Shown: piece after piece, positions 4,836 through 31,924 of the stretch
Layout: the number at the start of each line of letters is the position of its first letter
How positions within the stretch are numbered: position 1 is the first letter of the stretch
From: Archaeoglobaceae archaeon
GTDB lineage: Archaea > Halobacteriota > Archaeoglobi > Archaeoglobales > Archaeoglobaceae
Direction of reading: 5' to 3'
Assembly (NCBI GenBank): GCA_038893835.1
Contig: JAWAQR010000013.1
Span: 1-34,262, forward strand
DNA length: 34,262 bases
Notes under the pieces: generated by a model
The model's input: the letters and a program-made list of their open reading frames with translations, nothing else
The model's database searches: none
What the model was told of the DNA's origin: nothing
Position numbers and translations under genes: made by a program

Positions 4836-6179
4836 TTAATTTTCTTCAATCATCTTAGCAAAGCTAAGTAATTTGTTCTCCTCGAAATAGTTACCAATCA
4901 CTTGCATACCAACTGGTAGACCTTTTACAAAACCTATCGGAATGCTTAAGGCAGGAAGACCTGCGAGGTTTACTGGTACAGTGTTCACGTCCATTTTGTA
5001 CATTGTAAGTGGATCTTTTAGCTCCCCAATCTTAAACGGTAAGGATGGCATCGTTGGAGACACTAGTACATCGAACTTGCTGAAAGCTCTTCTAAAGTCC
5101 TCTATTATCAGCGTCCTCGCTCTAAGAGCTTTGAGATAGTATTTGCCATAATAACCAGCTGAAAGTGTATAACTTCCAAGCATGATCCTTCTCTTTACTT
5201 CCATTCCAAAACCTTCTGCTCTAACTCTCGAGCAGTAATCGCTCCAGGATGATAGCTGGGCTGAATGATGACCGTATCTAATTCCATCGTATCTCGCCAG
5301 ATTTGAAGAGGCTTCGCTCATCGCTATGATGTAATAAGCTGCGAGAGCGTATTTCAAAGAAGGTAATTCCACTTCTTCGTATTCAAACTTGTTTATTTCT
5401 TCGTAAAATCTATCCATAACAACCTCTTCAGCACTCATGTTCTTTATAACTCCAATTCTTTCAACTTTTTCCCTTCTGAAAAAGAAACTCCTTCCAGAAT
5501 TCGTCGAATCCCTCTCATCCCTTCCCGCGATCACTTCAAGTAAAAGGGCCAGATCTTCAACGCTGCTAGCCATTGGGCCTATTTGCTCAAGCGAATTCGC
5601 ATATGGAATTAATCCATATCTTGAGACAAGTCCATAGGTTGGTTTTAATCCATAAATCCCGCAAAAACTTGCAGGACATCTTATGCTACCACCAGTATCA
5701 CTTCCCAGTGCGAGGACAGTTTCATCATTTGCAATTGCCGCAGCACTTCCTCCACTACTACCTCCAGCCACCCTAGTTAAGTCATAAGGATTTCTAACGA
5801 CTCCGAAGTAAGAAGTCTCAGTTGTGGTGCCCATTCCAAACTCGTCCATGTTCGTCTTTCCAATTATTATTGCTCCCTCAGCCTTTAGTCTTTCAACTAC
5901 ATGTGCATCGAAGACGGGAATATAATTGGCCAACATCTTTGAGGCACAGGTAGTTCTTATTCCCTTAGTGGTTATGTTGTCCTTGACAGCAACGGGGATA
6001 CCTGCAAGTCTACCCTTCAAATTCCCTTTGTCGAATTCTTCAGCAAGCCTTAGAGCCTCTTTTTTGCAAACAGTTATGTAAGCGTTCAGTTCGCTTCTTT
6101 CTATTCTTTCAAGAAGCTTGTTTACAGCCTCAAAACAACCTTTTTCCTCAACTATTTTCATCCATTCAGATATCCTCAC
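4836..6179 (-). CDS. gatA: Asp-tRNA(Asn)/Glu-tRNA(Gln) amidotransferase subunit A
   Basis: VKDNI, GKTNMDEF, GGSSGGS, SDTGGSIR, EASSNLARYDG and EVKRRIMLG motifs; GTGA overlap with gatC. Confidence 0.96.
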   Translation of the reverse strand: MRISEWMKIVEEKGCFEAVNKLLERIERSELNAYITVCKKEALRLAEEFDKGNLKGRLAGIPVAVKDNITTKGIRTTCASKMLANYIPVFDAHVVERLKAEGAIIIGKTNMDEFGMGTTTETSYFGVVRNPYDLTRVAGGSSGGSAAAIANDETVLALGSDTGGSIRCPASFCGIYGLKPTYGLVSRYGLIPYANSLEQIGPMASSVEDLALLLEVIAGRDERDSTNSGRSFFFRREKVERIGVIKNMSAEEVVMDRFYEEINKFEYEEVELPSLKYALAAYYIIAMSEASSNLARYDGIRYGHHSAQLSSWSDYCSRVRAEGFGMEVKRRIMLGSYTLSAGYYGKYYLKALRARTLIIEDFRRAFSKFDVLVSPTMPSLPFKIGELKDPLTMYKMDVNTVPVNLAGLPALSIPIGFVKGLPVGMQVIGNYFEENKLLSFAKMIEEN

Positions 6180-10367: not shown

Positions 10368-10901
10368 GTGCTGAAACTTATATACTCTCTGCTAACGTTT
10401 CTTTTTCTAATCTCCTGTTATCTTGGATATTATTTGGCAGAAACTTATCCGGAAGTAACTAAAAGAGAGATGAAGAATTTAGAAGAGTTCTTCAGAAGCT
10501 TCGCACAGGCAAAATTATCCTTTATCGAGATCTTTGCTCTTATATTCATAAACAATTCTGTTAAATCTTTCTTTGCCATGCTCCTCGGAATTTTCTTTGG
10601 GATAGTTCCAGTTCTTTTTCTATTCCTCAATGGCCTCATAATCGGTTTATTTGCAAAGTTCATCGGCGAAAAAATTGGGCTTTTGAAGTTCATACTTTTA
10701 CTCTTACCACATGGAATTCTGGAAATACCTGCTGTAATTTTGGCCTGTAGTTACGGTTTTCAGCTCGGTGTCGAATTCGCAAGGAATAGAAAGGGGATAG
10801 TAAAACACGTTAAAAAAGCAGTAAAGAATTTCTTCAAATTCGTCATTCCAATGCTGCTCGTAGCTGCGATGATAGAAACTTTTCTAATCTCCATTAGCTA
10901 A
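10368..10901 (+). CDS. SpoIIM/DUF95-family membrane protein
   Basis: IFINN, NGLIIG, LPHGILEIPA and AAMIETF motifs. Confidence 0.88.
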   Translation: MLKLIYSLLTFLFLISCYLGYYLAETYPEVTKREMKNLEEFFRSFAQAKLSFIEIFALIFINNSVKSFFAMLLGIFFGIVPVLFLFLNGLIIGLFAKFIGEKIGLLKFILLLLPHGILEIPAVILACSYGFQLGVEFARNRKGIVKHVKKAVKNFFKFVIPMLLVAAMIETFLISIS

Positions 10902-11292
10902 TTTTTGATTGCGAAAAATTTTTTAAGCCTAGGATGTCTCTTCCATTTGCATAAACTTCCTCATCTATTCTAAAACCTCTGTTAGTTTCCTTTAAATCCT
11001 CAATTCTAAGAAACCTCCAATTCTTTCTCGGAAGTTTCAGAGCTATGTAGGCCTTTGCTCCAAAACTTTTGGAAAATTCTAGGAGCTTTTTAACTTCATC
11101 TGAGGAAATATAGAAGGGCAAAGAGCTCCTCATCTTTACTTCGAAAGCGAAGAACTCATCACCATTTCCTGCGACAACATCTGGACAGGGATAGCGTGAT
11201 GCCCCGCTGCCAGCAACTCTTACCGCGGCAAAACCATTTTTCCATAACTCCTCTATTAGCTCCCTCTCAAACCTTGAACCCTTCCCCTTCAT
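10894..11292 (-). CDS. hjc: Holliday junction resolvase Hjc
   Basis: KGSRFEREL, VRVAGSG, PDVVAG and FEVK (PD-(D/E)xK); ATG 11292 preferred. Confidence 0.95.
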   Translation of the reverse strand: MKGKGSRFERELIEELWKNGFAAVRVAGSGASRYPCPDVVAGNGDEFFAFEVKMRSSLPFYISSDEVKKLLEFSKSFGAKAYIALKLPRKNWRFLRIEDLKETNRGFRIDEEVYANGRDILGLKNFSQSKIS

Positions 11293-11374
11293 CAAAAAAA
11301 TTTTAAATTCCCCCACTTATCTCTTTCCAAAATAGACCGAAAAGCTAATATCGTAAGAAACTCAAAACCTTTGA

Positions 11375-12182: not shown

Positions 12183-14441
12183 CTATCCAATCTCCAAGGA
12201 CTTATCTTCCTGTTTTTTAATGAGATTCTCAACATCGTATTTTTCCGCCTCGCTGTACGGTGTTGTCATCAGAAGTCTTATACGTTTTGCTGTTTTTTCC
12301 CCAACTTTCGGTACTTTCATCAGCTCTTTTTCATCTGCAGTAGCTATTCTTTCGATTGTCTGGAAATACTCGAGTAAGTTCTTTGCTATAATCCCTCCAA
12401 CTCCGGAAATCGCGGATACAACGTATTCCTGTTCATCCTTCAAGCTTCTCTTTGTCTTTCCATAGTGCTCCACCACTACTCTTTTCCTTTCCTCCTGTTC
12501 TCTTCTAGCTATCGCCATCAGAAATTCTGCAGTCTCCCTTTCATCTCTTGTCCTTATTATTGGAATTCCGAAATCCACCGCTATCGCAGCTATTGCTCCA
12601 CGAATCGCATTTGGATGTAGACGTTGATATAAATTATCTCCTTCAACTATGATCACTGGTCTCTGATACGTTTTTAATTTCACCAGTTGTTGGAAGAGTC
12701 TGTCCTCTATTATGCTTTCGCTGAAATCCTCAACAGTCTTTCTTTCCACAGCAACTCTGTCACTTAGAACGTAATCTGCTACATCTAGATTTTTAACCTC
12801 TATCATCGCACCCATGTCGCGTAAAAGCTTAACGACTTCACTCCTCAATTCCCTAGAATCTACAATTATCTTCACTCCAGAGACCTCCGTCAGCTTTAGC
12901 TGTTCTATAGATTTTTTCTGCTTTTCCAGCATCGCCTTTACTTCTCTAACTCTCTCATACATCATTCTTTCCTTCCTCAGACTTATGAAGTAGTATGCTT
13001 CATCTCTTGTCCCTTTAGCCATTAGGACAACAATTCTCCCTTTCTTTCCTCTTCCAGTTCTTCCCTTTCTCTGTATGGCCCTGATTTCGGAGGGAATCGC
13101 TTCATAGAATACGACGAGATCGGTTGCAGGTATGTCAAGTCCCTCTTCGCCAATTGAAGTTGCGACTAGTATTTTATAGATACCATCTCTAAACTTTTCC
13201 AGAACTTCTATCTGTTCTCTCTGCCTCATACCCCTCTCCTCTTCCCTATCCGCTTGTCCAATGAACTTTGAAGTCGGGGCAATCTTTGATAACTCGGAAA
13301 CCAAATAATCGGCGGAATCTCTATAGTTTGTGAATACGATTATTCTAGAATCTGGATTGCTTTTAATTTGCTCAGCAATTATCTCCTTTAGTTTTACAAT
13401 CTTCGGATGTTCTCTGTTTATCCTAAGAGAGAGCATCAAAGCATCTCTGAAGTTCGAATCGTTGGCGATGTTTTTTGAAGCCCTGCTACAACCTCTAGAT
13501 GTCCCCTCTTTCAGTATTTTACTCGCATAACTCCTAAAACTTTCGATACTCTGCGTCTCTATGAGCTCTATAGCATGTGAAAGCTTTAGAATTTCAGCAA
13601 GAATTGAAATTGCTTCGAACAATTCTGTTTTTTGTGATTTGGCAGCTTCTTCCTGAATTAACTGCTGGAATTCCAACAACTCTCTTTTAGTCGCCTTTTC
13701 AGGAATTTCGAATCCGAGTTCTTTTAACTTCTTCAGCCTGATCTTTATACTCGTCTCCAACTTTTCTCTAATCGCAATTATTTCCTTAGGGACTTCAATG
13801 CTGATCCACTCAATTTCTTTTTCACTTATATACGGTTTTACGTCTTCATCAAACTCTGTTCTGAGTTCAATCCCTTCTATGTATAAATTTTTCACTATCT
13901 CCATTATTCTTTCCGGATCGCTGCCGGGTGAGGCTGTTAGGGCCAATATTAATGGTTTTTTAGCTTTTTGCATGTATTCTTTGGCGATGAACACGTAGCT
14001 GTAATTTCCAACAGCTCTATGCGCTTCATCAAAGATTAGAAGGACGAAATCTTCGAAAGAAAATCTGTTCGCTATGATGTCGTTTTCGACAACCTGAGGT
14101 GTTGCAACCACTATCTTTGCAGATTCCCACATTTTAACTCTCTTTTCTGGCTCATCATCTCCACTCATTGCCACTATCTTTCTTTCATCAATCTTCAAGA
14201 TTCTCTTTAAGAAATTTGCATGCTGCTCGACCAGAGGTCTCGTTGGAGCAAGAAATAAAGCTTTCCCCTCTTCGTTTAAAAGTCTTGAAGCCAAAACCAA
14301 AGCGGCAATTGTGGTTTTTCCAAGTCCAGTGGGAATTACAACGAGTGTGTTCTTGAGTAAAGCATTCGTAGCTATCGCTAGTTGATAAATTCTTCTCTCT
14401 ATTACTCCTTCTTTGATGAGAGGATGTGTTACACATTCCAC
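12183..14441 (-). CDS. hef: Hef helicase/nuclease (FANCM/Mph1-like SF2 helicase + ERCC4 nuclease + HhH2)
   Basis: PTGLGKT, DEAH, TASPG, QRKGRTGR; ADY...ERKTVEDF nuclease motif; ISGVG and VPKVG HhH pair. Confidence 0.95.
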   Translation of the reverse strand: MECVTHPLIKEGVIERRIYQLAIATNALLKNTLVVIPTGLGKTTIAALVLASRLLNEEGKALFLAPTRPLVEQHANFLKRILKIDERKIVAMSGDDEPEKRVKMWESAKIVVATPQVVENDIIANRFSFEDFVLLIFDEAHRAVGNYSYVFIAKEYMQKAKKPLILALTASPGSDPERIMEIVKNLYIEGIELRTEFDEDVKPYISEKEIEWISIEVPKEIIAIREKLETSIKIRLKKLKELGFEIPEKATKRELLEFQQLIQEEAAKSQKTELFEAISILAEILKLSHAIELIETQSIESFRSYASKILKEGTSRGCSRASKNIANDSNFRDALMLSLRINREHPKIVKLKEIIAEQIKSNPDSRIIVFTNYRDSADYLVSELSKIAPTSKFIGQADREEERGMRQREQIEVLEKFRDGIYKILVATSIGEEGLDIPATDLVVFYEAIPSEIRAIQRKGRTGRGKKGRIVVLMAKGTRDEAYYFISLRKERMMYERVREVKAMLEKQKKSIEQLKLTEVSGVKIIVDSRELRSEVVKLLRDMGAMIEVKNLDVADYVLSDRVAVERKTVEDFSESIIEDRLFQQLVKLKTYQRPVIIVEGDNLYQRLHPNAIRGAIAAIAVDFGIPIIRTRDERETAEFLMAIARREQEERKRVVVEHYGKTKRSLKDEQEYVVSAISGVGGIIAKNLLEYFQTIERIATADEKELMKVPKVGEKTAKRIRLLMTTPYSEAEKYDVENLIKKQEDKSLEIG

Positions 14442-14522: not shown

Positions 14523-14798
14523 ATGTCTGGTCAGTTTGGTAAAGAAGAAATTGTACATATACATCTCCTGCTTTTCCAGATTAAAAAGTTTTTAGAGAGT
14601 TTGGGTGTCGAGAATGAGTATTTCAGGGAGTATGAAATGATGAACATATCTCCAGTCCAGATCTTCAAGCAGAAGATAGAACACAGGGAAGCGATAATAA
14701 AGCTATGTTATGGAATAATGAAGGCAATAGGCAGAGAGGAGGAATTGGAAAGAATCTGTTATATGGTTAAGGGATTGATGAAAGAAGAGGAAAGTTAG
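14523..14798 (+). CDS. UPF0058-family protein
   Basis: KEEIVHIHLLL...F.EY....ISP..I.K.K.EH..AI..L pattern. Confidence 0.75.
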   Translation: MSGQFGKEEIVHIHLLLFQIKKFLESLGVENEYFREYEMMNISPVQIFKQKIEHREAIIKLCYGIMKAIGREEELERICYMVKGLMKEEES

Positions 14799-17067
14799 AA
14801 TAATATCTGAATCCTCCCTTTTCCTTATACTTCTCCCACTCAGTCCTTCTCTTTTCTCCACCTATGATCTTACTTAAAACTTCTATCGCTCCATCCTTTC
14901 TCAGCGGTCTGTTGTTGTTGCCACACTGATAACTATAGGTACATTTGGGACAGCCATCTATTCTTTTGCAGTCGCAATTTTTCAAAATCTCATAGGAAAT
15001 TCTGAAGGCTTTTTCCAGTCTTTTAAATAGCAGTTTACTTAAGCCACTACCACCTATTATACCATCGTATACAAAAATATCTCCTTCAGCTGTAGAAATT
15101 CCACCAATTTCCCTGCTACCACCACCAGTTAATGCATTGGTCGACTCGATCAGAACGTGCTCTACAGCATGAAAGCTTCCAGCATAAAATTCTTCATCAC
15201 CCTCATCTGGAAATGGACATGAAAAAATGAACCCCTTTGTGCGGAAGGAGAAATTTATCGGCTTTTCAAGGTAGAAAATTTCCTTTCTTTCTCTGAAGAT
15301 ATCTCTTTTTACATAACCATGAACAGAAATCGATATCTCAAGCGTTGTATAATATGCTTCCACAGGATTGCAAATAGAATCTTCAACGCTGACTATCTTC
15401 GGAATCGATGTGTAAAGGGGATCCGTTATCTCTTCCCCCTCATCCGCAACCTCAACCTCTGCACGCAAACTCTCAAGGTCGAGTTCTTTGCACCTGTATC
15501 TAACACCATTGTGTATTATTACAGCCCCAGGAAATAGCTCTTTCACAGCTATTGGCAAAACTCTTTCCCCAATTTCCTTTCCATTATGAAAAATTTTAAT
15601 TCTTTCCCCAATTCCTCGCATCGAGAATTGCTCTAAGTATTTCAGCCCTTTCTCGGTTAAGTTGAGAAATATTCCAGTTTTCACAAGTCCCTCATCAATC
15701 AGTTGTTTTAAAACTTCAGACCTTAATTCCTCAGGTTTAGTGCTTTTTTCAGCTATCATAGAAAGGAACTGATACTTTCTAACTTCTTCATTCTCCTTCT
15801 CAACGTATCCATTTGTCTGATCTTTGAAGTAATCTTCTGGATTTCTTTTGTAGTAAGCGGAAATTGGATCATCGGTTCTCAGCAAAAGAATTCCAATGCT
15901 CTCCTGTCCTCTTCTCCCCGCCCTTCCAACTCGCTGCAAAAATTGAGAATACGGAACAAGCTCGGATATAACGATGTCTACATCCCCTATGTCAATGCCA
16001 AGTTCCAGTGTTGGTGTAGAAACAACAACTTTTATTTTCCCTTCTCTAAAATTCCTTTCAACCTCATTTCTCAATTCTTTTGTTAATCCGCTTTTATGCA
16101 CTGCAGAAGGAATCTTGGATTTTCTGAGAACCCAATTGATTGTCTCGACAACCTTGTAACTGTTTCCAAAGATCAGAATTTTTTTGTTTGGAAAGGCGGT
16201 TACGATTTCCTTCACCGCAGAATAGATGTTGCTACACTCTCTCATTACAAAGTTTAAAACTGTTTTTCTGTGCTCTCCATGTACATGTACGAATTCCCTT
16301 TCAAATAGCTCTTCTGCAAACTCCTTTGCATTTGCAAGCGTAGCAGAGGCGCATGCAATTTGAAAATCGGAAAATCTGTCAAGTCTTTTAATGAGATAGT
16401 GCATGTTGGAGCCAAAAAAGCCAGTGTAAACATGTAGTTCATCGATTGCTATGAAAGACACTTCTCTTACAAAGTTTCTGAAAGCGGGAGTATTTCTCAA
16501 ATGATAATCGACCATATCTGGATTTGTTAGAACAATATCGGCTTTCCCAGACAGTACAGCTGTTCTTTCTTCTAAGCTTGAATCTCCGTCAAATCTCACT
16601 ACTCTGATTCCCAAATCTTCTGCATAGTCCTTTATTTTTAACTCCTGATCCTTTGCTAAAGCCTTTGTAGGGTAAAAAACTATCCCTTTCCCCTCTTTAA
16701 CCTTTTCAAGCATAGGTATAACGAAGGCCTCAGTTTTTCCAAAGCCTGTTGGAGCTGTGATCACAACGTTTTTTCCAGCGATTAGTAGCTCCATTGCTTC
16801 TTTCTGAAACGGATATAGCTTTTCTATCCCTCTTTTTCTGAGCACAGATGCGAGTTCTTTTGGAAGAAAATCCAATGACTCAGTAGGGACTTCGTTGAAA
16901 GGTTCGAAGACGCAAAAGTAGACTATTTCATCCTTGGTTTCAAAGATAGGTCTTAGGAATTCCTTGTAATTTTGCATTAGAATCTTTAGGTTTTTATCCA
17001 ATGTACTGCTGCATGAGCATCTTTTTCTGAGCCTTTTGCATTTGGGACAGAAAAGATCTTCAAGCAC
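14767..17067 (-). CDS. SF2 DExH helicase with C-terminal DUF1998 Zn-binding domain (Hrq1/MrfA/SftH-like)
   Basis: APTGFGKT, YPTKALAKDQ, TNPDM, DELH, SAT, LELGIDIG, QRVGRAGR; C-terminal HAVEH...CDC..GCPKC...CGNNN; N-terminal CPKC...CSC. Confidence 0.9.
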   Translation of the reverse strand: MLEDLFCPKCKRLRKRCSCSSTLDKNLKILMQNYKEFLRPIFETKDEIVYFCVFEPFNEVPTESLDFLPKELASVLRKRGIEKLYPFQKEAMELLIAGKNVVITAPTGFGKTEAFVIPMLEKVKEGKGIVFYPTKALAKDQELKIKDYAEDLGIRVVRFDGDSSLEERTAVLSGKADIVLTNPDMVDYHLRNTPAFRNFVREVSFIAIDELHVYTGFFGSNMHYLIKRLDRFSDFQIACASATLANAKEFAEELFEREFVHVHGEHRKTVLNFVMRECSNIYSAVKEIVTAFPNKKILIFGNSYKVVETINWVLRKSKIPSAVHKSGLTKELRNEVERNFREGKIKVVVSTPTLELGIDIGDVDIVISELVPYSQFLQRVGRAGRRGQESIGILLLRTDDPISAYYKRNPEDYFKDQTNGYVEKENEEVRKYQFLSMIAEKSTKPEELRSEVLKQLIDEGLVKTGIFLNLTEKGLKYLEQFSMRGIGERIKIFHNGKEIGERVLPIAVKELFPGAVIIHNGVRYRCKELDLESLRAEVEVADEGEEITDPLYTSIPKIVSVEDSICNPVEAYYTTLEISISVHGYVKRDIFRERKEIFYLEKPINFSFRTKGFIFSCPFPDEGDEEFYAGSFHAVEHVLIESTNALTGGGSREIGGISTAEGDIFVYDGIIGGSGLSKLLFKRLEKAFRISYEILKNCDCKRIDGCPKCTYSYQCGNNNRPLRKDGAIEVLSKIIGGEKRRTEWEKYKEKGGFRYYSNFPLLSSIP

Positions 17068-19903: not shown

Positions 19904-20840
19904 ATGGAAAGTGCTGTTGAACTGATTGAAAAGCTTCGTGGTGGAGAGATAAGAGCAGAAGAGCTCGTTGAAATTTGCTTTGAGAGAATAAAGGAACTAA
20001 ATCCGAAGATAAATGCATTTGTAACACTAAATCCAAATGCTATTAAAGAGGCGAAAGAAGTGAAGGGAAAGCCTTTAGCTGGACTTCCCGTCGCTGTTAA
20101 AGACAATACAGATACGAGGGGGTTAAGAACGACTTACGGTTCAAGATTGAAGCTGCTGCAGTTGCGGCTGAAATGGTTCCAGTTGCAACTGCGAATGATG
20201 GAGGAGGAAGTATAAGAATACCTGCTAGTTTTTGTTCGCTTTACGGATTTAAACAAACTTTTGGGGCATTCATTCTTTACCAGACGATGGATTCAGTTAT
20301 CTGAAAGGAATTTGAAGAAGTTGTCAGAAGGACTGCCTTTAAACTTGAAAGGTTTGGAGAGGTTGAGGAAGTTAAATTGAAGGTTCCATGTCTGGAAAGA
20401 GAGCTAACTATTAAGGTTGTTTTGGAATTCACTTCTTTCATCTCGGATAAACTTAAAGAGTGGAAAAAAGTCACATATCTTCCTTATCTTGGATTTCTAC
20501 CGCTTTCAGAGATGTTAAGTTATAGGGATTACATAAGGATAGAGGAAAGGAGATTAGAACTTTGGAGGGCTTTAAGGAAAGTCTTCGAGAAATACGATTT
20601 CCTAATAACTCCTACCACGGCTGTAAAGCCATTTGAGATAGGAAAAATAAGCCCTGAAGAAATCGATTAACTTCACTGGACAGCTATCTGCTTCAATTCC
20701 CCGCTGGTTTCAGCAGAGATGGTCTGCCAATTGGGATGCAGATAACTGGTAGAAAATACGAGGATCTAAACGTGCTCAGAATTTCCAAGACTTTTCAAGA
20801 AGTCTCCCCTTGGCAAAAAATGAAACCAAAGATCAAATGA
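19904..20840 (+). pseudogene. Amidase-signature family pseudogene
   Basis: RBS AGGTGA, then fragments in shifting frames: [17 protein letters not shown] / [23 protein letters not shown] / YDFLITPTT / [27 protein letters not shown]. The GKTN..GGSSGG segment is deleted. Confidence 0.92.
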
Positions 20841-21975: not shown

Positions 21976-22305
21976 TTAAATTTTCTGGAATTCAGTGTAG
22001 TATGCATTTATCTCATCGTAGCACTTCAAAAGCTTTGCAACTTCTACCGCTATTATATGTGCGCAGGGCATTCTGCCTTTTAAGTTTATTTGAAAATCTG
22101 GACAAGTGCAAAAGAACTCTTCAACCAGATACTCGTTCCTTCCGACGACGATGAAGAAGTCCAAATATCTCTTAACTCTATGCTGCTGGAGATAAAAGAA
22201 GGCTTTCTCACCCCTTTTACCATAGTTTAAGAAAAGAGCTTTGTATAGCTCGTAACCCAATCCCTTCTTTGCCGCCTCGATGACTTCATCATTCAGAATC
22301 TTCAT
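21976..22305 (-). CDS. SWIM zinc-finger protein, Shu2/SWS1-like
   Basis: CTCPDF-x9-CAHIIA SWIM motif in a stand-alone 109-aa protein. Confidence 0.85.
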   Translation of the reverse strand: MKILNDEVIEAAKKGLGYELYKALFLNYGKRGEKAFFYLQQHRVKRYLDFFIVVGRNEYLVEEFFCTCPDFQINLKGRMPCAHIIAVEVAKLLKCYDEINAYYTEFQKI

Positions 22306-22861
22306 CAGTTTCTTGGGGAGAATCTATTTTGGATAATTCCACAATCATCGAAATCGCATCAATCCCATCGAGCCAATTGAGCACGATTCCATCCTCAGGC
22401 GGATTGAAGTCTGGCAATTTTTCTCCTTTGATTACCTTTGCACCTATTCTTGCAACCGTGTCAAAAGCTAAGTCTAGCTTACCCCTTTTCTCATTCTCTA
22501 TCGCATCTTGTATTAGCTCTTTAATGCTTTTCTTACTCAACTTTCCTTCCAAATAATACTCAAATGAGGCGAGAACAGCTTTGATAGATTCCAGTGTCAG
22601 GAAAAACACGTCTTCTTTTATATCAGAATTAAACTTATAATCTTTATTAAAAATATTTTTTATCTTTTCTATCTCTTTCAAAGCCTCCGCTTTTCTTATC
22701 TCTCTATCCTTTACCGCATTTACGATGTTGAAGCAGGCGATTATGACGTCTTCAAGCATTTGGTCGAAGACGATCAAAGTGGTTGGATCATCTTCACTAA
22801 CTTTGCTCTCGTTTATCTTGTTGATCCAGTTCTGGAGTCTTGTCTCGCTATAAAATTCCAT
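22289..22861 (-). CDS. DUF2150-family protein
   Basis: FYSETRLQNWI N-terminus, GAKVIKG and WLDGIDAI motifs, acidic tail. Confidence 0.8.
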   Translation of the reverse strand: MEFYSETRLQNWINKINESKVSEDDPTTLIVFDQMLEDVIIACFNIVNAVKDREIRKAEALKEIEKIKNIFNKDYKFNSDIKEDVFFLTLESIKAVLASFEYYLEGKLSKKSIKELIQDAIENEKRGKLDLAFDTVARIGAKVIKGEKLPDFNPPEDGIVLNWLDGIDAISMIVELSKIDSPQETDEDSE

Positions 22862-22911
22862 AAGTCTAACTCAAAAACAAAAATATAGGTAAGTATTTAA
22901 GTATTTCCAAT

Positions 22912-23880
22912 CTACTTCGCATCCTCGATTCCCTTTTCAGTCACCCTGAAAACAACCTCGCCTTCAGGCAAATGTGGGGAGTCGACAAGTCTGGCAATTC
23001 TAAGATCCCCTTTACTCTTTTTTAAATAAATTCTGTAAGTAGCCGTGTGAGCAACTATATGCCCTCCAACAGGTTTTGTTGGATCCCCAAACATTATATC
23101 TGGTCTAGCCATTACTTGGTTTGTAACGACGATGGCAGCGTTGAAAAGTTCTCCGAACTTCATTAGATCATGCATATGTCTGTTCAATTTTTGCTGTCTG
23201 TCTGCCAAAGTACCCCTGCCAACGTATTCGGCACGGAAATGAGAAGTTAGAGAATCTACGATGAGGAGTCTTACATGCTTTCCTTCTTTTCTCAGCTTCT
23301 CCGCAAGCTCTCTAGCATTGTCCACAAGAAGCATCTGATGGTTGGAGTTGTAAGCTTGGGCCACGTAAATGTTTTTGAGAACTTCATTTGGATCGAGATT
23401 TTTCGCTATGGCCATCTGTATTATTCTCTCAGGTCTAAAAGTGTTCTCAGTGTCTATCACTATAGCACAGCCGCCTAAACCTCCTTTATCTTCAGGTAAC
23501 TGAACATTCACAGCCAGTTGATGACAGAGTTGAGTTTTTCCACTTCCAAATTCGCCAAACAACTCTGTAATAGCCTGCGTTTCAACTCCGCCTCCTAAAA
23601 GATTATCTAGTTCTTTACTTCCAGTACTTATCTTTTTTACATTCCTTCTCCTTTCAAGAACCTTATCCCCACTTTCAAAACCGCCAATGCTCGCCATTTT
23701 CCTTGCATGCTGTATGATCTTCATAGCACTGGATTCTCCAATTCCAGCAATGGATGAGATTTCGGCTGGAGATGCAATTGCTATTGCTTCAATTGTTGTA
23801 AATCCAGCCTCTCTTAGCTTTCTAGCAGTTTCCGGACCAACTCCGGGAATATCTTCGAGGTCTAGCACTTCATCTTTCAT
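22912..23880 (-). CDS. radA: DNA repair and recombination protein RadA
   Basis: HhH N-domain IPGVGP, FxxA-like [35 protein letters not shown]; no intein. Confidence 0.98.
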
Positions 23881-23903: not shown

Positions 23904-24893
23904 TTAAACTTTTTGCTTCGCCAGTTTACCTTCGAGTGACTCTCTTACAGACTTGTTCAATGCAATCTCCCCAATCGACTTCATATGTCTACAAATACTG
24001 AGAAGAGCTTCAAGGCTCAGATGATATTGTGAACTTGTCTCAATTTTTTCGATCATCTTTTTCTCTATCTCTTCAAGCAACTGGATCGAATCTTCAGACA
24101 TTTCCAGATTCGACTCAAAATAGGCCTTGGAGACCATATCAAAGGCGAAGTTTAGCTCTATCAGAAAAGTCTTTAGAACTTCGAGCTCTTCTTTCTTCTC
24201 CAATTTCGACACGTAAACTGCAAAGTTTTCAAGATTGTCGATTATTTCCTCAATTAGCTTTGCCACAGTCCTTATTCCAAGGATAAGTCGAAGCTCATTC
24301 CACTTCGCTGGACTGGAAAATTCTCTCACAAGCCTATGCTCCTGTCTTACGGCTAGTAAATAAAGTCGGTCAGTATCGTCTTCCAAGTTCTTTAAATCTG
24401 AAAGTTGAGTAAGATCGGATTTGTTTATGGCTTCTATTATGTTCTCTATCATCGTTTGCACTATCTGGCTCATTCTCCTTACAACTCCATACACGTCAAA
24501 GTCCGTTACAGTCAGGCATCTTAGAACGACTTTATCTCTAGCATCGACTATTTCAACTCCTATGAGCGTTTTTACAATCTCACTTATTTTTGCTATAAGT
24601 CTGGGGGTTATGTTTTTGTCCGTTATAACGATCTCGTCAACTCCCTGTATGTAAAGTGCATATAGAAATCTTCTGAGAAATCTTTCATCATATCTCTTGA
24701 AGTTTGAAATCTCAACTTTTGATATTTTTATATCCTCCTTAAATCCCTTCGGATACAGAGTTATCACACTATCTTCCACTTCTAAGATTATCTCATCACC
24801 CTGTTTTAACTTGTTCGCCCTCACCCAATCCTTTGGGAGGCTAACCATGTAGCTTGAACCCCCTATAAGCTGAAGTCTTCTCGTTTCCATCAT
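23904..24893 (-). CDS. PhoU-family regulator with N-terminal AbrB/SpoVT DNA-binding domain
   Basis: RRLQLIGGSSYMVSLPKDW AbrB motif; two helical PhoU repeats (EDDTDRLYLL). Confidence 0.88.
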   Translation of the reverse strand: MMETRRLQLIGGSSYMVSLPKDWVRANKLKQGDEIILEVEDSVITLYPKGFKEDIKISKVEISNFKRYDERFLRRFLYALYIQGVDEIVITDKNITPRLIAKISEIVKTLIGVEIVDARDKVVLRCLTVTDFDVYGVVRRMSQIVQTMIENIIEAINKSDLTQLSDLKNLEDDTDRLYLLAVRQEHRLVREFSSPAKWNELRLILGIRTVAKLIEEIIDNLENFAVYVSKLEKKEELEVLKTFLIELNFAFDMVSKAYFESNLEMSEDSIQLLEEIEKKMIEKIETSSQYHLSLEALLSICRHMKSIGEIALNKSVRESLEGKLAKQKV

Positions 24894-30841: not shown

Positions 30842-31924
30842 TTAAATTATTCCTATTTCTGAAAGTTTTTCAGGTAGATAAACATCTGTCACATAATCCA
30901 GCCCGTATTTGGCCAAAGCCTGTTGTTCTGATTTTTTATTAATCTCAAGCTGCAGCTTTACTTCTTTTTTCCAAAAATCTGTATTAAACCTTGGATCCGA
31001 AAGAATGGAATAGAGAGCTTTTATATCTTCATCGTTTAGCTTGTCAGCGGGCAAATCGTAGCGAATTATGTCAGAAGGTGTTATGCCTAAGAACTTTGCA
31101 TCGGGGGTTGCTAAGTATTCTGAAAGGTGGGCAGACTTTATGCTCCCATAAGCGATGCTTGCATAGATTCTGTAACTCCAGGGATCTCCATCTGTAAATA
31201 CGACGACAGGTAAACCTAGCTCAGTGTTTAACCTTTTCAGCAACCTCCTAGTACTTCTCGCCGGTTGACCTTTTAGATGCACTATTATGGCATCAAATTT
31301 CTCATCAAAACCATTCTCCACAAGCCTGTCCCTCATACCACCAGTCTCTATTGCTATAACGAACTCAGCATCGCATTCGATGAATTCAAGTTTGTCAACG
31401 TTCACGGGAATCTGGTAACCACCTTCTCCAACATCGTCTTGGCAATGAATTTCTTTATACCCTCTTCTAGTTTCCTCACGAATCTTTATAGGACCAATTA
31501 TTGTTGCCCCATCTTCTTCAGGACGAATGTGAAAGTGCTCTCTTTGAAAATTTGACAGTATTTCAAGATCCTCAATTAACCTGTCACTCTCATCCTGATC
31601 CTCAAACTTCGCAAATCCCCAACTCTCGCTGATGTAGTATAGCTCCCTTAGCGTCGAAGATTTATTTGCTAAAAGCTGTTCTTTCAAAAAACCTATTAGA
31701 TATGCAATTTTTAGTATTTTAAAAGCACCTTTGATCGTTTTTGCAGAAGTTGTTGACTTTCTATCTCCATAAACCCAAACTCCAGAATTTTCGTCGAATT
31801 CTATGTTTTGTTTTGTCCTCGTGGATATATCTATCTCAGGTATCTTTCCAGCTTTCATCTGCTCGTATAAATTCTCCAGAATTCCAAGCAGAGATGAAAG
31901 ACATTTTTTATCCACTTCATTCAT
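30842..31924 (-). CDS. top6A: DNA topoisomerase VI subunit A
   Basis: STLRELYY (catalytic Tyr), [35 protein letters not shown]. Confidence 0.96.

Follow-up and report, generated by a model that had tools for sequence, protein, structure and literature searches.

Here, we analysed a 34,262-nucleotide (nt) stretch of DNA from an Archaeoglobaceae archaeon, referred to below as the window, with emphasis on three neighbouring genes of its minus strand that encode the recombinase RadA, a DUF2150 protein and a small protein with a SWIM zinc finger. A preliminary description of this DNA had proposed that these genes form a recombination module resembling the eukaryotic Shu system, in which the DUF2150 and SWIM proteins act as a pair on RadA. 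The SWIM protein proved to be a genuine and interesting representative of a family with a predicted Shu2 fold; the "Shu-like module with radA" made up of the three genes is not conserved as a unit. On balance, we favour the explanation that this protein serves as a pan-archaeal Shu2-fold adaptor for nucleic-acid enzymes, that radA became its neighbour by rearrangement, and that the DUF2150 and SWIM genes form a separate, coupled unit.

With coordinates given as positions in the full window, radA occupies 22912-23880 and encodes a canonical archaeal recombinase of 322 amino acids (aa), with an N-terminal helix-hairpin-helix (HhH) region and a RecA-fold ATPase core. Its product scored 546 bits against TIGR02236, above the cut-off of 361 for a RadA equivalog, matched PF08423 (Rad51; E 1.5e-91) and PF14520 (HHH_5; E 2.4e-16), and was 82-93% identical to RadA in five genomes of the same genus. 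A 50-nt spacer (22862-22911) separates the radA stop codon from the start of the DUF2150 gene (22289-22861), whose 190-aa product is acidic (isoelectric point, pI, 4.6) and was recognized by PF09920 over profile positions 1-184 of 189 (E 7e-53; 179.8 bits vs. a cut-off of 28). The end of this gene overlaps the start of the SWIM gene (21976-22305) by 17 nt (22289-22305), which implies translational coupling. The SWIM gene encodes a stand-alone SWIM zinc-finger protein of 109 aa, mildly basic (pI 8.3), in which PF04434 matched residues 61-90 (27 bits vs. a cut-off of 19.6). All these features lie on the minus strand, and the co-orientation, the overlap and the spacer were verified as they had been given in the preliminary description. 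The genome (G000; 1.17 Mb, 97% complete) contains a single DUF2150 gene and a single gene with a SWIM domain.

All motifs previously quoted for the SWIM protein (LFLNYGKRGEKAF, VVGRNEY, CTCPDF and CAHIIA) were found in it. The residues C66, C68, C81 and H83 do not vary among 25 orthologues nor, together with G55, among 50 more distant homologues, and the conservation of A86 reaches at least 90% in both sets. According to one report (PMC6316741), the SWIM motif of SWS1 reads CxC...Xn...CxHxxA, with the alanine three residues after the histidine. The CxC...CxHxxA pattern of the Shu2/SWS1 family is present in the archaeal protein, and the alanine also occurs in most of the other distant homologues listed. 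An alanine after the histidine is common in SWIM domains generally, so A86 is not discriminating for Shu2/SWS1.

The structure of the SWIM protein was modelled from a 50-sequence alignment (predicted local distance difference test, pLDDT, 94.3; predicted template modelling score, pTM, 0.87). The model comprises three helices at the N-terminus, three strands, a CxC/CxH site associated with two helices, and one further helix at the C-terminus. When compared with 48,161 PDB representatives by a Z-score aligner, it superposed best on Shu2 of the Eremothecium Shu1:Shu2 structure (6dex_B; Z 7.5, 104 of 109 residues, 15% identity) and next on yeast Shu2 (5xyn_D; Z 7.4, 105 of 109 residues), with a root-mean-square deviation of 2.8 A. 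These were followed by ZSWIM8 (Z 4.2-5.1), and all unrelated folds stayed at 2.9 or below. Foldseek placed Shu2 first as well, with an E value of 0.27.

The literature consulted includes PMC5727457, PMC6316741, PMC8469502, PMC12962969 and PMC10236294. Like Shu2/SWS1 (ZSWIM7 and yeast Shu2), the archaeal protein is small and has one SWIM zinc site with the CxC...CxHxxA pattern, and its model covers nearly its whole length on both Shu2 structures. It differs from them in three respects. Shu2 has a 59-residue insertion domain, according to its description (PMC5727457), which the archaeal protein lacks; no profile-level sequence match was obtained; and the genomic neighbours are NIF3, DUF2150, metallophosphoesterase, Lhr and RPA-like genes, not Rad51 paralogues. 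Judged by the model, the prediction for the archaeal protein is a minimal Shu2 that lacks the insertion domain, and the match to Shu2 would reflect a shared extended-SWIM architecture rather than orthology. ZSWIM8 (PDB 9rwz), a substrate receptor of a cullin-3 ligase, was matched over 77-78 residues, which take in the SWIM site and some of the helical region. This match is weaker and shorter than that of Shu2, and ZSWIM8 itself has about 1,000 residues, of which SWIM is a small part. Thus, the Shu2/SWS1 layout proposed earlier for the SWIM protein holds for the motif and the predicted whole-length fold. The profile searches yielded no sequence-level tie with eukaryotic SWS1.

The close named homologues of the SWIM protein were all from Archaeoglobi, with 78 of 79 candidates being significant, and an exhaustive profile search yielded 140 representatives (E <= 1e-3), the named members belonging to Halobacteriota, Nitrososphaeria, Bathyarchaeota and Heimdallarchaeaceae. 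A profile of the TACK/Asgard branch reached Promethearchaeota, Thor-, Hod-, Hel-, Odin-, Jord-, Njord- and Heimdall-archaea as well as Bathyarchaeia among the best 120 of 214 matches. The Halobacteriota and TACK/Asgard branches aligned with each other over 108 columns (hhalign 99.5%, E 1e-22). In the phylum of a Promethearchaeota metagenome-assembled genome, 69/81 genomes carry the family, one copy each; among 201 Halobacteriota genomes, SWIM was detected in 125 (single copy) and DUF2150 in 161. The proteins have 109-148 aa; no fused or longer SWIM forms (at least 348 aa) were found, which is a weak indication, and a search of a protein atlas returned archaeal SWIM clusters only. The SWIM protein therefore belongs to a single-copy pan-archaeal family that is present in Halobacteriota, in Thermoproteota (Nitrososphaeria and Bathyarchaeia) and in almost every Asgard genome of the sample.

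In TACK and Asgard archaea, we examined the neighbours of SWIM in 11 loci (flanks up to 6 kb, retrieved with P0237) and in 30 loci with 1.5-kb flanks, two of which repeat genomes of the first set (39 unique loci of 41). A gene for a calcineurin-like metallophosphoesterase of about 280 aa, mostly divergent, adjoins SWIM in 9/11 and 18/30 loci; an Lhr-type helicase is encoded nearby in 6/11 and 13/30, and an RPA-like OB-fold protein in 8/11 and 6/30. Six of the 30 loci have no metallophosphoesterase, Lhr or RPA-like gene. The phosphoesterase-SWIM pair recurs in loci of Nitrososphaeria, Hecatellales, Bathyarchaeota and Promethearchaeota, and inherited synteny alone is hard to accept as the cause. 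At one Bathyarchaeota locus (L119:3746-6291), a ribonucleotide reductase gene (barrel and ATP-cone) overlaps the SWIM start by about 13 nt, and an RPA-like OB-fold gene comes next. No matches to RadA/RadB, NIF3 or DUF2150 were found in the 41 loci (1.5-6 kb flanks; whole genomes were not searched for DUF2150). The DNA-repair flavour of the SWIM neighbours is clear in TACK and Asgard archaea; in Halobacteriota the neighbours are divided between NIF3 and tRNA enzymes.

Lhr helicase and the metallophosphoesterase MPE are reportedly encoded in a repair operon in bacteria. The archaeal arrangement is similar in that SWIM of Asgard and TACK genomes is divergent to a calcineurin-like phosphoesterase and stands beside Lhr (DEAD, DEAD_assoc and WH_Lhr domains); to our knowledge, the bacterial Lhr-MPE system has no SWIM component. 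The genome of the window has two Lhr-type genes, both on other contigs. In the Asgard phylum, we also observed that SWIM of loci L123-L138 and L145-L147 lies between a divergent metallophosphoesterase and a convergent Lhr gene, with an RPA-like gene beyond Lhr, and that in some genomes phosphoesterase and Lhr make up one operon divergent to SWIM. Genes for the A-type ATPase catalytic subunit near Asgard SWIM (L123:1635-3506 and L127:139-3537) carry LAGLIDADG inteins. In the literature searched, we did not find any paper that links the archaeal SWIM family to NIF3, Lhr or SWS1, although an earlier notice of the family is possible.

For Halobacteriota, neighbours were counted in 70 Pfam-checked SWIM loci. 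A NIF3/DUF34 gene is located immediately upstream of SWIM on the same strand in 34 of them, which represent eight families besides the sister family of the window's family, and the NIF3 stop typically overlaps the SWIM start by 1-17 nt. DUF2150 takes the upstream place in nine loci, all of the window's family, and neither gene is adjacent in the remaining 27. The window's genome has no NIF3, which was found in just one of the 19 other genomes of the genus. A parallel case is provided by two further families: one has the order MoaA-NIF3-SWIM, and the other, which lacks NIF3 (one genome searched), has MoaA-SWIM.

Several additional features were seen around SWIM in these genomes. The NIF3(DUF34)-SWIM array, often extended to NIF3-SWIM-alaS, is found at loci L034-L059, L078, L090-L094 and L105-L109, and in a single genome an IS605-type TnpB/Cas12f-like gene has been inserted between SWIM and alaS (L038:712-1470). 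Three Archaeoglobaceae loci (L052, L060 and L061) have a dCTP deaminase gene after SWIM. A distance of about 2 kb separates SWIM from hef at one haloarchaeal-type locus, where ligN is also close to SWIM; this is a weak hint of a repair context.

The NIF3-SWIM array resembles the association of bacterial NIF3/DUF34 (YbgI, YqfO) with COG1579 in that NIF3 is coupled to a small zinc-binding protein. The two differ in the nature of this partner, since COG1579 is a zinc-ribbon protein with a coiled coil, whereas the archaeal partner is a SWIM protein, and NIF3 is missing from the genome of the window. COG2384 is the tRNA methylase TrmK. A review of DUF34 names COG1579 as the commonest neighbour of bacterial NIF3 and describes both fusions and gene clusters of bacterial NIF3 with COG2384; its text mentions neither SWIM (0 occurrences) nor the NIF3-SWIM array.

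We then considered radA. A conserved linkage of SWIM with radA, radB or a paralogue, as a Shu-like gene module would show, was not borne out. The neighbourhood of DUF2150 was surveyed in 30 loci with 1.5-kb flanks (14 from the window's genus, 5 from other Archaeoglobales genera and 11 from outside the order). An arrangement with radA directly upstream of DUF2150 is seen in 9 of the 14 loci of the genus, but in no locus from other Archaeoglobales genera (0/5) or from outside the order (0/11). Six further loci of the family that carry the DUF2150-SWIM pair gave no strong RadA match within 4-kb flanks; one of them (L115) showed weak RecA-fold matches (E 4e-06). Among the 70 Halobacteriota SWIM loci, L041 is the sole one with radA nearby, in divergent orientation to NIF3-SWIM, and the count for TACK/Asgard loci is 0/41.

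The junction between radA and DUF2150 has features of a change in gene order. A second radA copy is present in the same genome on contig C10 at about 33.8-34.6 kb (locus L064); it is very similar to the radA of the window, is split over three reading frames, has an internal deletion and is probably a pseudogene. The sequences on either side of this copy correspond to the radA locus of a genome of the same genus (G015) in which radA and DUF2150 are not adjacent. The window matches the same G015 locus in the genes that precede radA, namely cofG and the gene directly upstream (23904-24893), whose product joins a DNA-binding domain of the AbrB/MazE type to a PhoU domain. Since the C10 flanks and the upstream genes of the window both correspond to this one locus, the breakpoint is placed directly after radA. 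Hence the radA-DUF2150 junction is a rearrangement breakpoint accompanied by a decaying duplicate and does not look like a selected operon; the order radA-DUF2150-SWIM is a product of local rearrangement and not a conserved recombination operon.

The spacer in front of DUF2150 contains two TATA-like elements, CTTAAATA and CTATATTT, and a T-tract; the first element and the T-tract, which had been pointed out before, were both located. By an eye count, a TTATA(T/A)-type element precedes the DUF2150 start by about 20-40 nt in about 17 of the 19 Archaeoglobales loci, including loci with and without radA upstream. In the window, it is the second element, CTATATTT, about 21-28 nt before the ATG, that aligns with the TATA-like element of the relatives. 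Considering the usual archaeal TATA-to-start spacing, this position suggests a separate and nearly leaderless DUF2150-SWIM transcript. A scan for sigma-70-type promoters and hairpin terminators, whose models are unsuited to archaea, noted a TATATT hexamer. It is likely that the spacer combines the terminator region of radA with the promoter of DUF2150-SWIM. The caveat raised in the preliminary description, namely that the two genes may be transcribed separately, is thus reinforced by the retention of the TATA-like element irrespective of radA.

The DUF2150 protein was described earlier as acidic and helical, and both properties were recovered: besides its low pI, it was modelled (pLDDT 91.5) as a seven-helix bundle with no sheet and with a disordered acidic tail. 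We also considered whether it could be a Rad51 paralogue, which is ruled out by the all-helical model, and no Rad51/RecA match was obtained from Pfam or NCBIfam. Fold searches retrieved just generic helical bundles and designed proteins (translin with a TM-score of 0.31; Z up to 9.6 over about half of the model), and the protein atlas gave no usable match after exclusion of the protein's own family. Complex prediction with DUF2150 and SWIM each supplied as an alignment returned a score of 0.00 in both runs, which is uninformative either way on binding.

The pairing of DUF2150 with SWIM is confined to Archaeoglobales. SWIM lies within 1.5 kb of DUF2150 in all 19 Archaeoglobales loci of the survey and overlaps or abuts it in 18; across the window's family, the two genes are adjacent in 29 of 33 genomes, not adjacent in three and undecided in one. 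Both genomes of the sister family carry DUF2150-NIF3-SWIM on one strand. Outside the order, no SWIM gene was detected near DUF2150 in the 11 loci, using a broad hidden Markov model and the CxC...CxH pattern, and the neighbours of DUF2150 there are varied (UPF0179/CbiX, argG, TatD, deoxyhypusine synthase and a DHH/DHHA1 protein), with no recurrent repair context. In 15 other families that have both genes, DUF2150 and SWIM are far apart or on different contigs in every genome compared. Of 30 Halobacteriota families, 16 have both genes, 6 neither, 6 DUF2150 only and 2 SWIM only; DUF2150 occurs without SWIM, for example, in 28/28 genomes of one family and 7/7 of another. Elsewhere in the phylum the genes thus stand apart, and 8 of the 30 families possess just one of them. 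It is doubtful that DUF2150 is a partner of the SWIM protein.

Taken together, these data lead us to the following scheme. An ordinary recombinase gene, radA, would have been brought beside DUF2150 by rearrangement inside one Archaeoglobaceae genus, next to a translationally coupled DUF2150-SWIM unit that is probably expressed from a TATA-like promoter of its own, near the start codon. This pairing is specific to Archaeoglobales. In the simplest history, NIF3(DUF34)-SWIM was ancestral in the phylum and DUF2150 came to lie upstream of it in Archaeoglobales, an order which the sister family has kept as DUF2150-NIF3-SWIM; loss or relocation of NIF3 in the window's family would then have left DUF2150 abutting the SWIM start and fused onto it. 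Similar to Shu2, the SWIM protein may serve as a zinc-stabilised protein-protein adaptor that docks onto a nucleic-acid enzyme. Judged by its neighbours, it might have NIF3 as its client in methanogen-type lineages, and in Asgard and TACK archaea the group formed by metallophosphoesterase, Lhr helicase and RPA; the co-translated DUF2150 protein could be either a partner or a mere neighbour. Nothing that we found ties the family specifically to RadA.

A number of observations weigh against this scheme. Some of them concern the fold. The match to Shu2 is moderate, as best Z-scores of 7-8 are typical of models without a clear match. Besides, Shu2 and ZSWIM8 were the sole SWIM chains among the matches, so that the similarity may reflect just the shared fold of the SWIM superfamily. 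Searches of all PDB sequences, including the Shu2 entries, with the profiles A1 and A2 gave no real match at E values up to 10; two PDB sequences that appeared at E 0.8-1.7 were rejected as coiled-coil noise. Moreover, the named proteins found with the TACK/Asgard profile (best 120 of 214 matches) included no eukaryotic ones. Other observations concern the neighbours of SWIM in this phylum, several of which are tRNA enzymes. The gene for alanyl-tRNA synthetase (AlaRS), a tRNA enzyme and not a repair protein, is directly downstream of SWIM in 18/70 Halobacteriota loci, and Trm1 adjoins SWIM in five haloarchaeal-type (high-GC) loci (L062, L083, L095, L098 and L101). In a member of the same class whose genome lacks NIF3 (L033, 549-2687), a TiaS-like gene, SWIM and an open reading frame (ORF) with TrmO_N and dCTP-deaminase parts overlap serially. 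In addition, SWIM occurs without NIF3 in the window's genus and in one or two further families (genomes searched for both), and NIF3 occurs without SWIM in one large family; as each persists alone, they are not obligate partners. Finally, the 17-nt overlap and the adjacency in 29/33 genomes of the family are compatible with a real partnership of DUF2150 and SWIM, and the minus strand of the window carries hjc (Holliday junction resolvase; 10894-11316), hef (nuclease-helicase; 12183-14441) and a DEAH-box helicase gene (14767-17067) within about 11 kb, a weak hint at a loose repair neighbourhood.

One alternative explanation assigns SWIM, together with NIF3, to RNA or tRNA metabolism, where it could for instance be an accessory that binds tRNA or protein; it would then have no recombination role, and radA would be a chance neighbour. 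The overlap of NIF3 with SWIM in 34/70 loci is in line with this idea, as are the AlaRS and Trm1 neighbours, the overlaps with TiaS-like and TrmO_N sequences at L033, and the bacterial fusions and clusters of NIF3 with COG2384 in the DUF34 review. However, the TACK/Asgard neighbours are metallophosphoesterase, Lhr, RPA-like and ribonucleotide reductase genes instead of tRNA enzymes, the family persists in lineages without NIF3, and the AlaRS adjacency may be synteny inherited among related methanogen-type families. We consider this explanation improbable.

There is a similarly small chance that the family represents the true archaeal orthologue of SWS1/Shu2, which would bind paralogues with a RecA fold (RadB or others related to RadA) whose genes lie elsewhere in the genome, so that gene linkage is uninformative. 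Shu2 orthologues have been described as conserved "from archaea to humans" in one report (PMC5727457). The whole-length match to Shu2, the motif with its extra alanine, the size of 109-148 aa and the near-universal presence in the Asgard sample (69/81 genomes) agree with such a relationship, and the genome of the window encodes RadB on another contig (263 bits); yet no RadA/RadB-like neighbour was seen in the 39 unique TACK/Asgard loci, nor in the 70 Halobacteriota loci except L041, and the weak RecA-fold matches at L115 leave this picture unchanged. No sequence link to eukaryotic members emerged from the profile searches of PDB or among the best 120 of 214 matches of the TACK/Asgard profile. 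Furthermore, the family was not found in two large families of the phylum (0/28 and 0/23 genomes), which we assume to bear RadB.

The proposal that DUF2150 and SWIM proteins form a heterodimer like that of the Shu complex, which modulates RadA filaments and whose gene order reflects its function, is in our opinion very unlikely: co-orientation, the 17-nt overlap and the 50-nt spacer, the Shu2-like fold with its CxC...CxHxxA motif, the acidity of the DUF2150 protein (pI 4.6) as against a SWIM protein that is mildly basic (pI 8.3), the adjacency in 29/33 family genomes, the presence of both genes in 16/30 families of the phylum and a second, independent proximity of SWIM to a divergent radA at L041 speak for it, but the adjacency of radA is limited to 9/14 loci of one genus and was seen nowhere else examined, a promoter-like element precedes DUF2150 regardless of radA, the junction coincides with a rearrangement breakpoint and a decaying radA duplicate, DUF2150 is all-helical with no RecA fold, 8/30 families carry just one of the two genes, and the 41 TACK/Asgard loci (39 unique; flanks of 1.5-6 kb, whole genomes not being searched) contain no DUF2150 match.

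Returning to the Shu2-fold adaptor, we tentatively raise a broader view, which we regard as rather unlikely at present: the SWIM protein might be the archaeal forerunner of SWS1/Shu2, a minimal zinc adaptor that recruits or regulates DNA-repair machines (metallophosphoesterase, Lhr and RPA in Asgard and TACK archaea, NIF3 in methanogen-type lineages, and possibly RadA/RadB), from which the Shu complex could have arisen by re-targeting to Rad51 paralogues. If this is true, the universally distributed NIF3/DUF34 would be linked through its SWIM partner to the processing of DNA or RNA ends. The SWIM family, a single-copy protein of predicted Shu2 fold found in 69/81 genomes of the Asgard phylum and 125/201 Halobacteriota genomes, offers a concrete handle on two questions: how the Shu complex and similar recombinase helpers of eukaryotes originated, and what NIF3/DUF34 does.

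Some minor observations were made elsewhere in the window. Topoisomerase VI subunit A is encoded at 30842-31924. Two short ORFs are located on the plus strand at 19904-20215 and 20377-20670, the first of which matches the N-terminus of amidase/GatA-type enzymes. This match suggests a broken amidase gene, and an intact gatA is present at 4836-6179.

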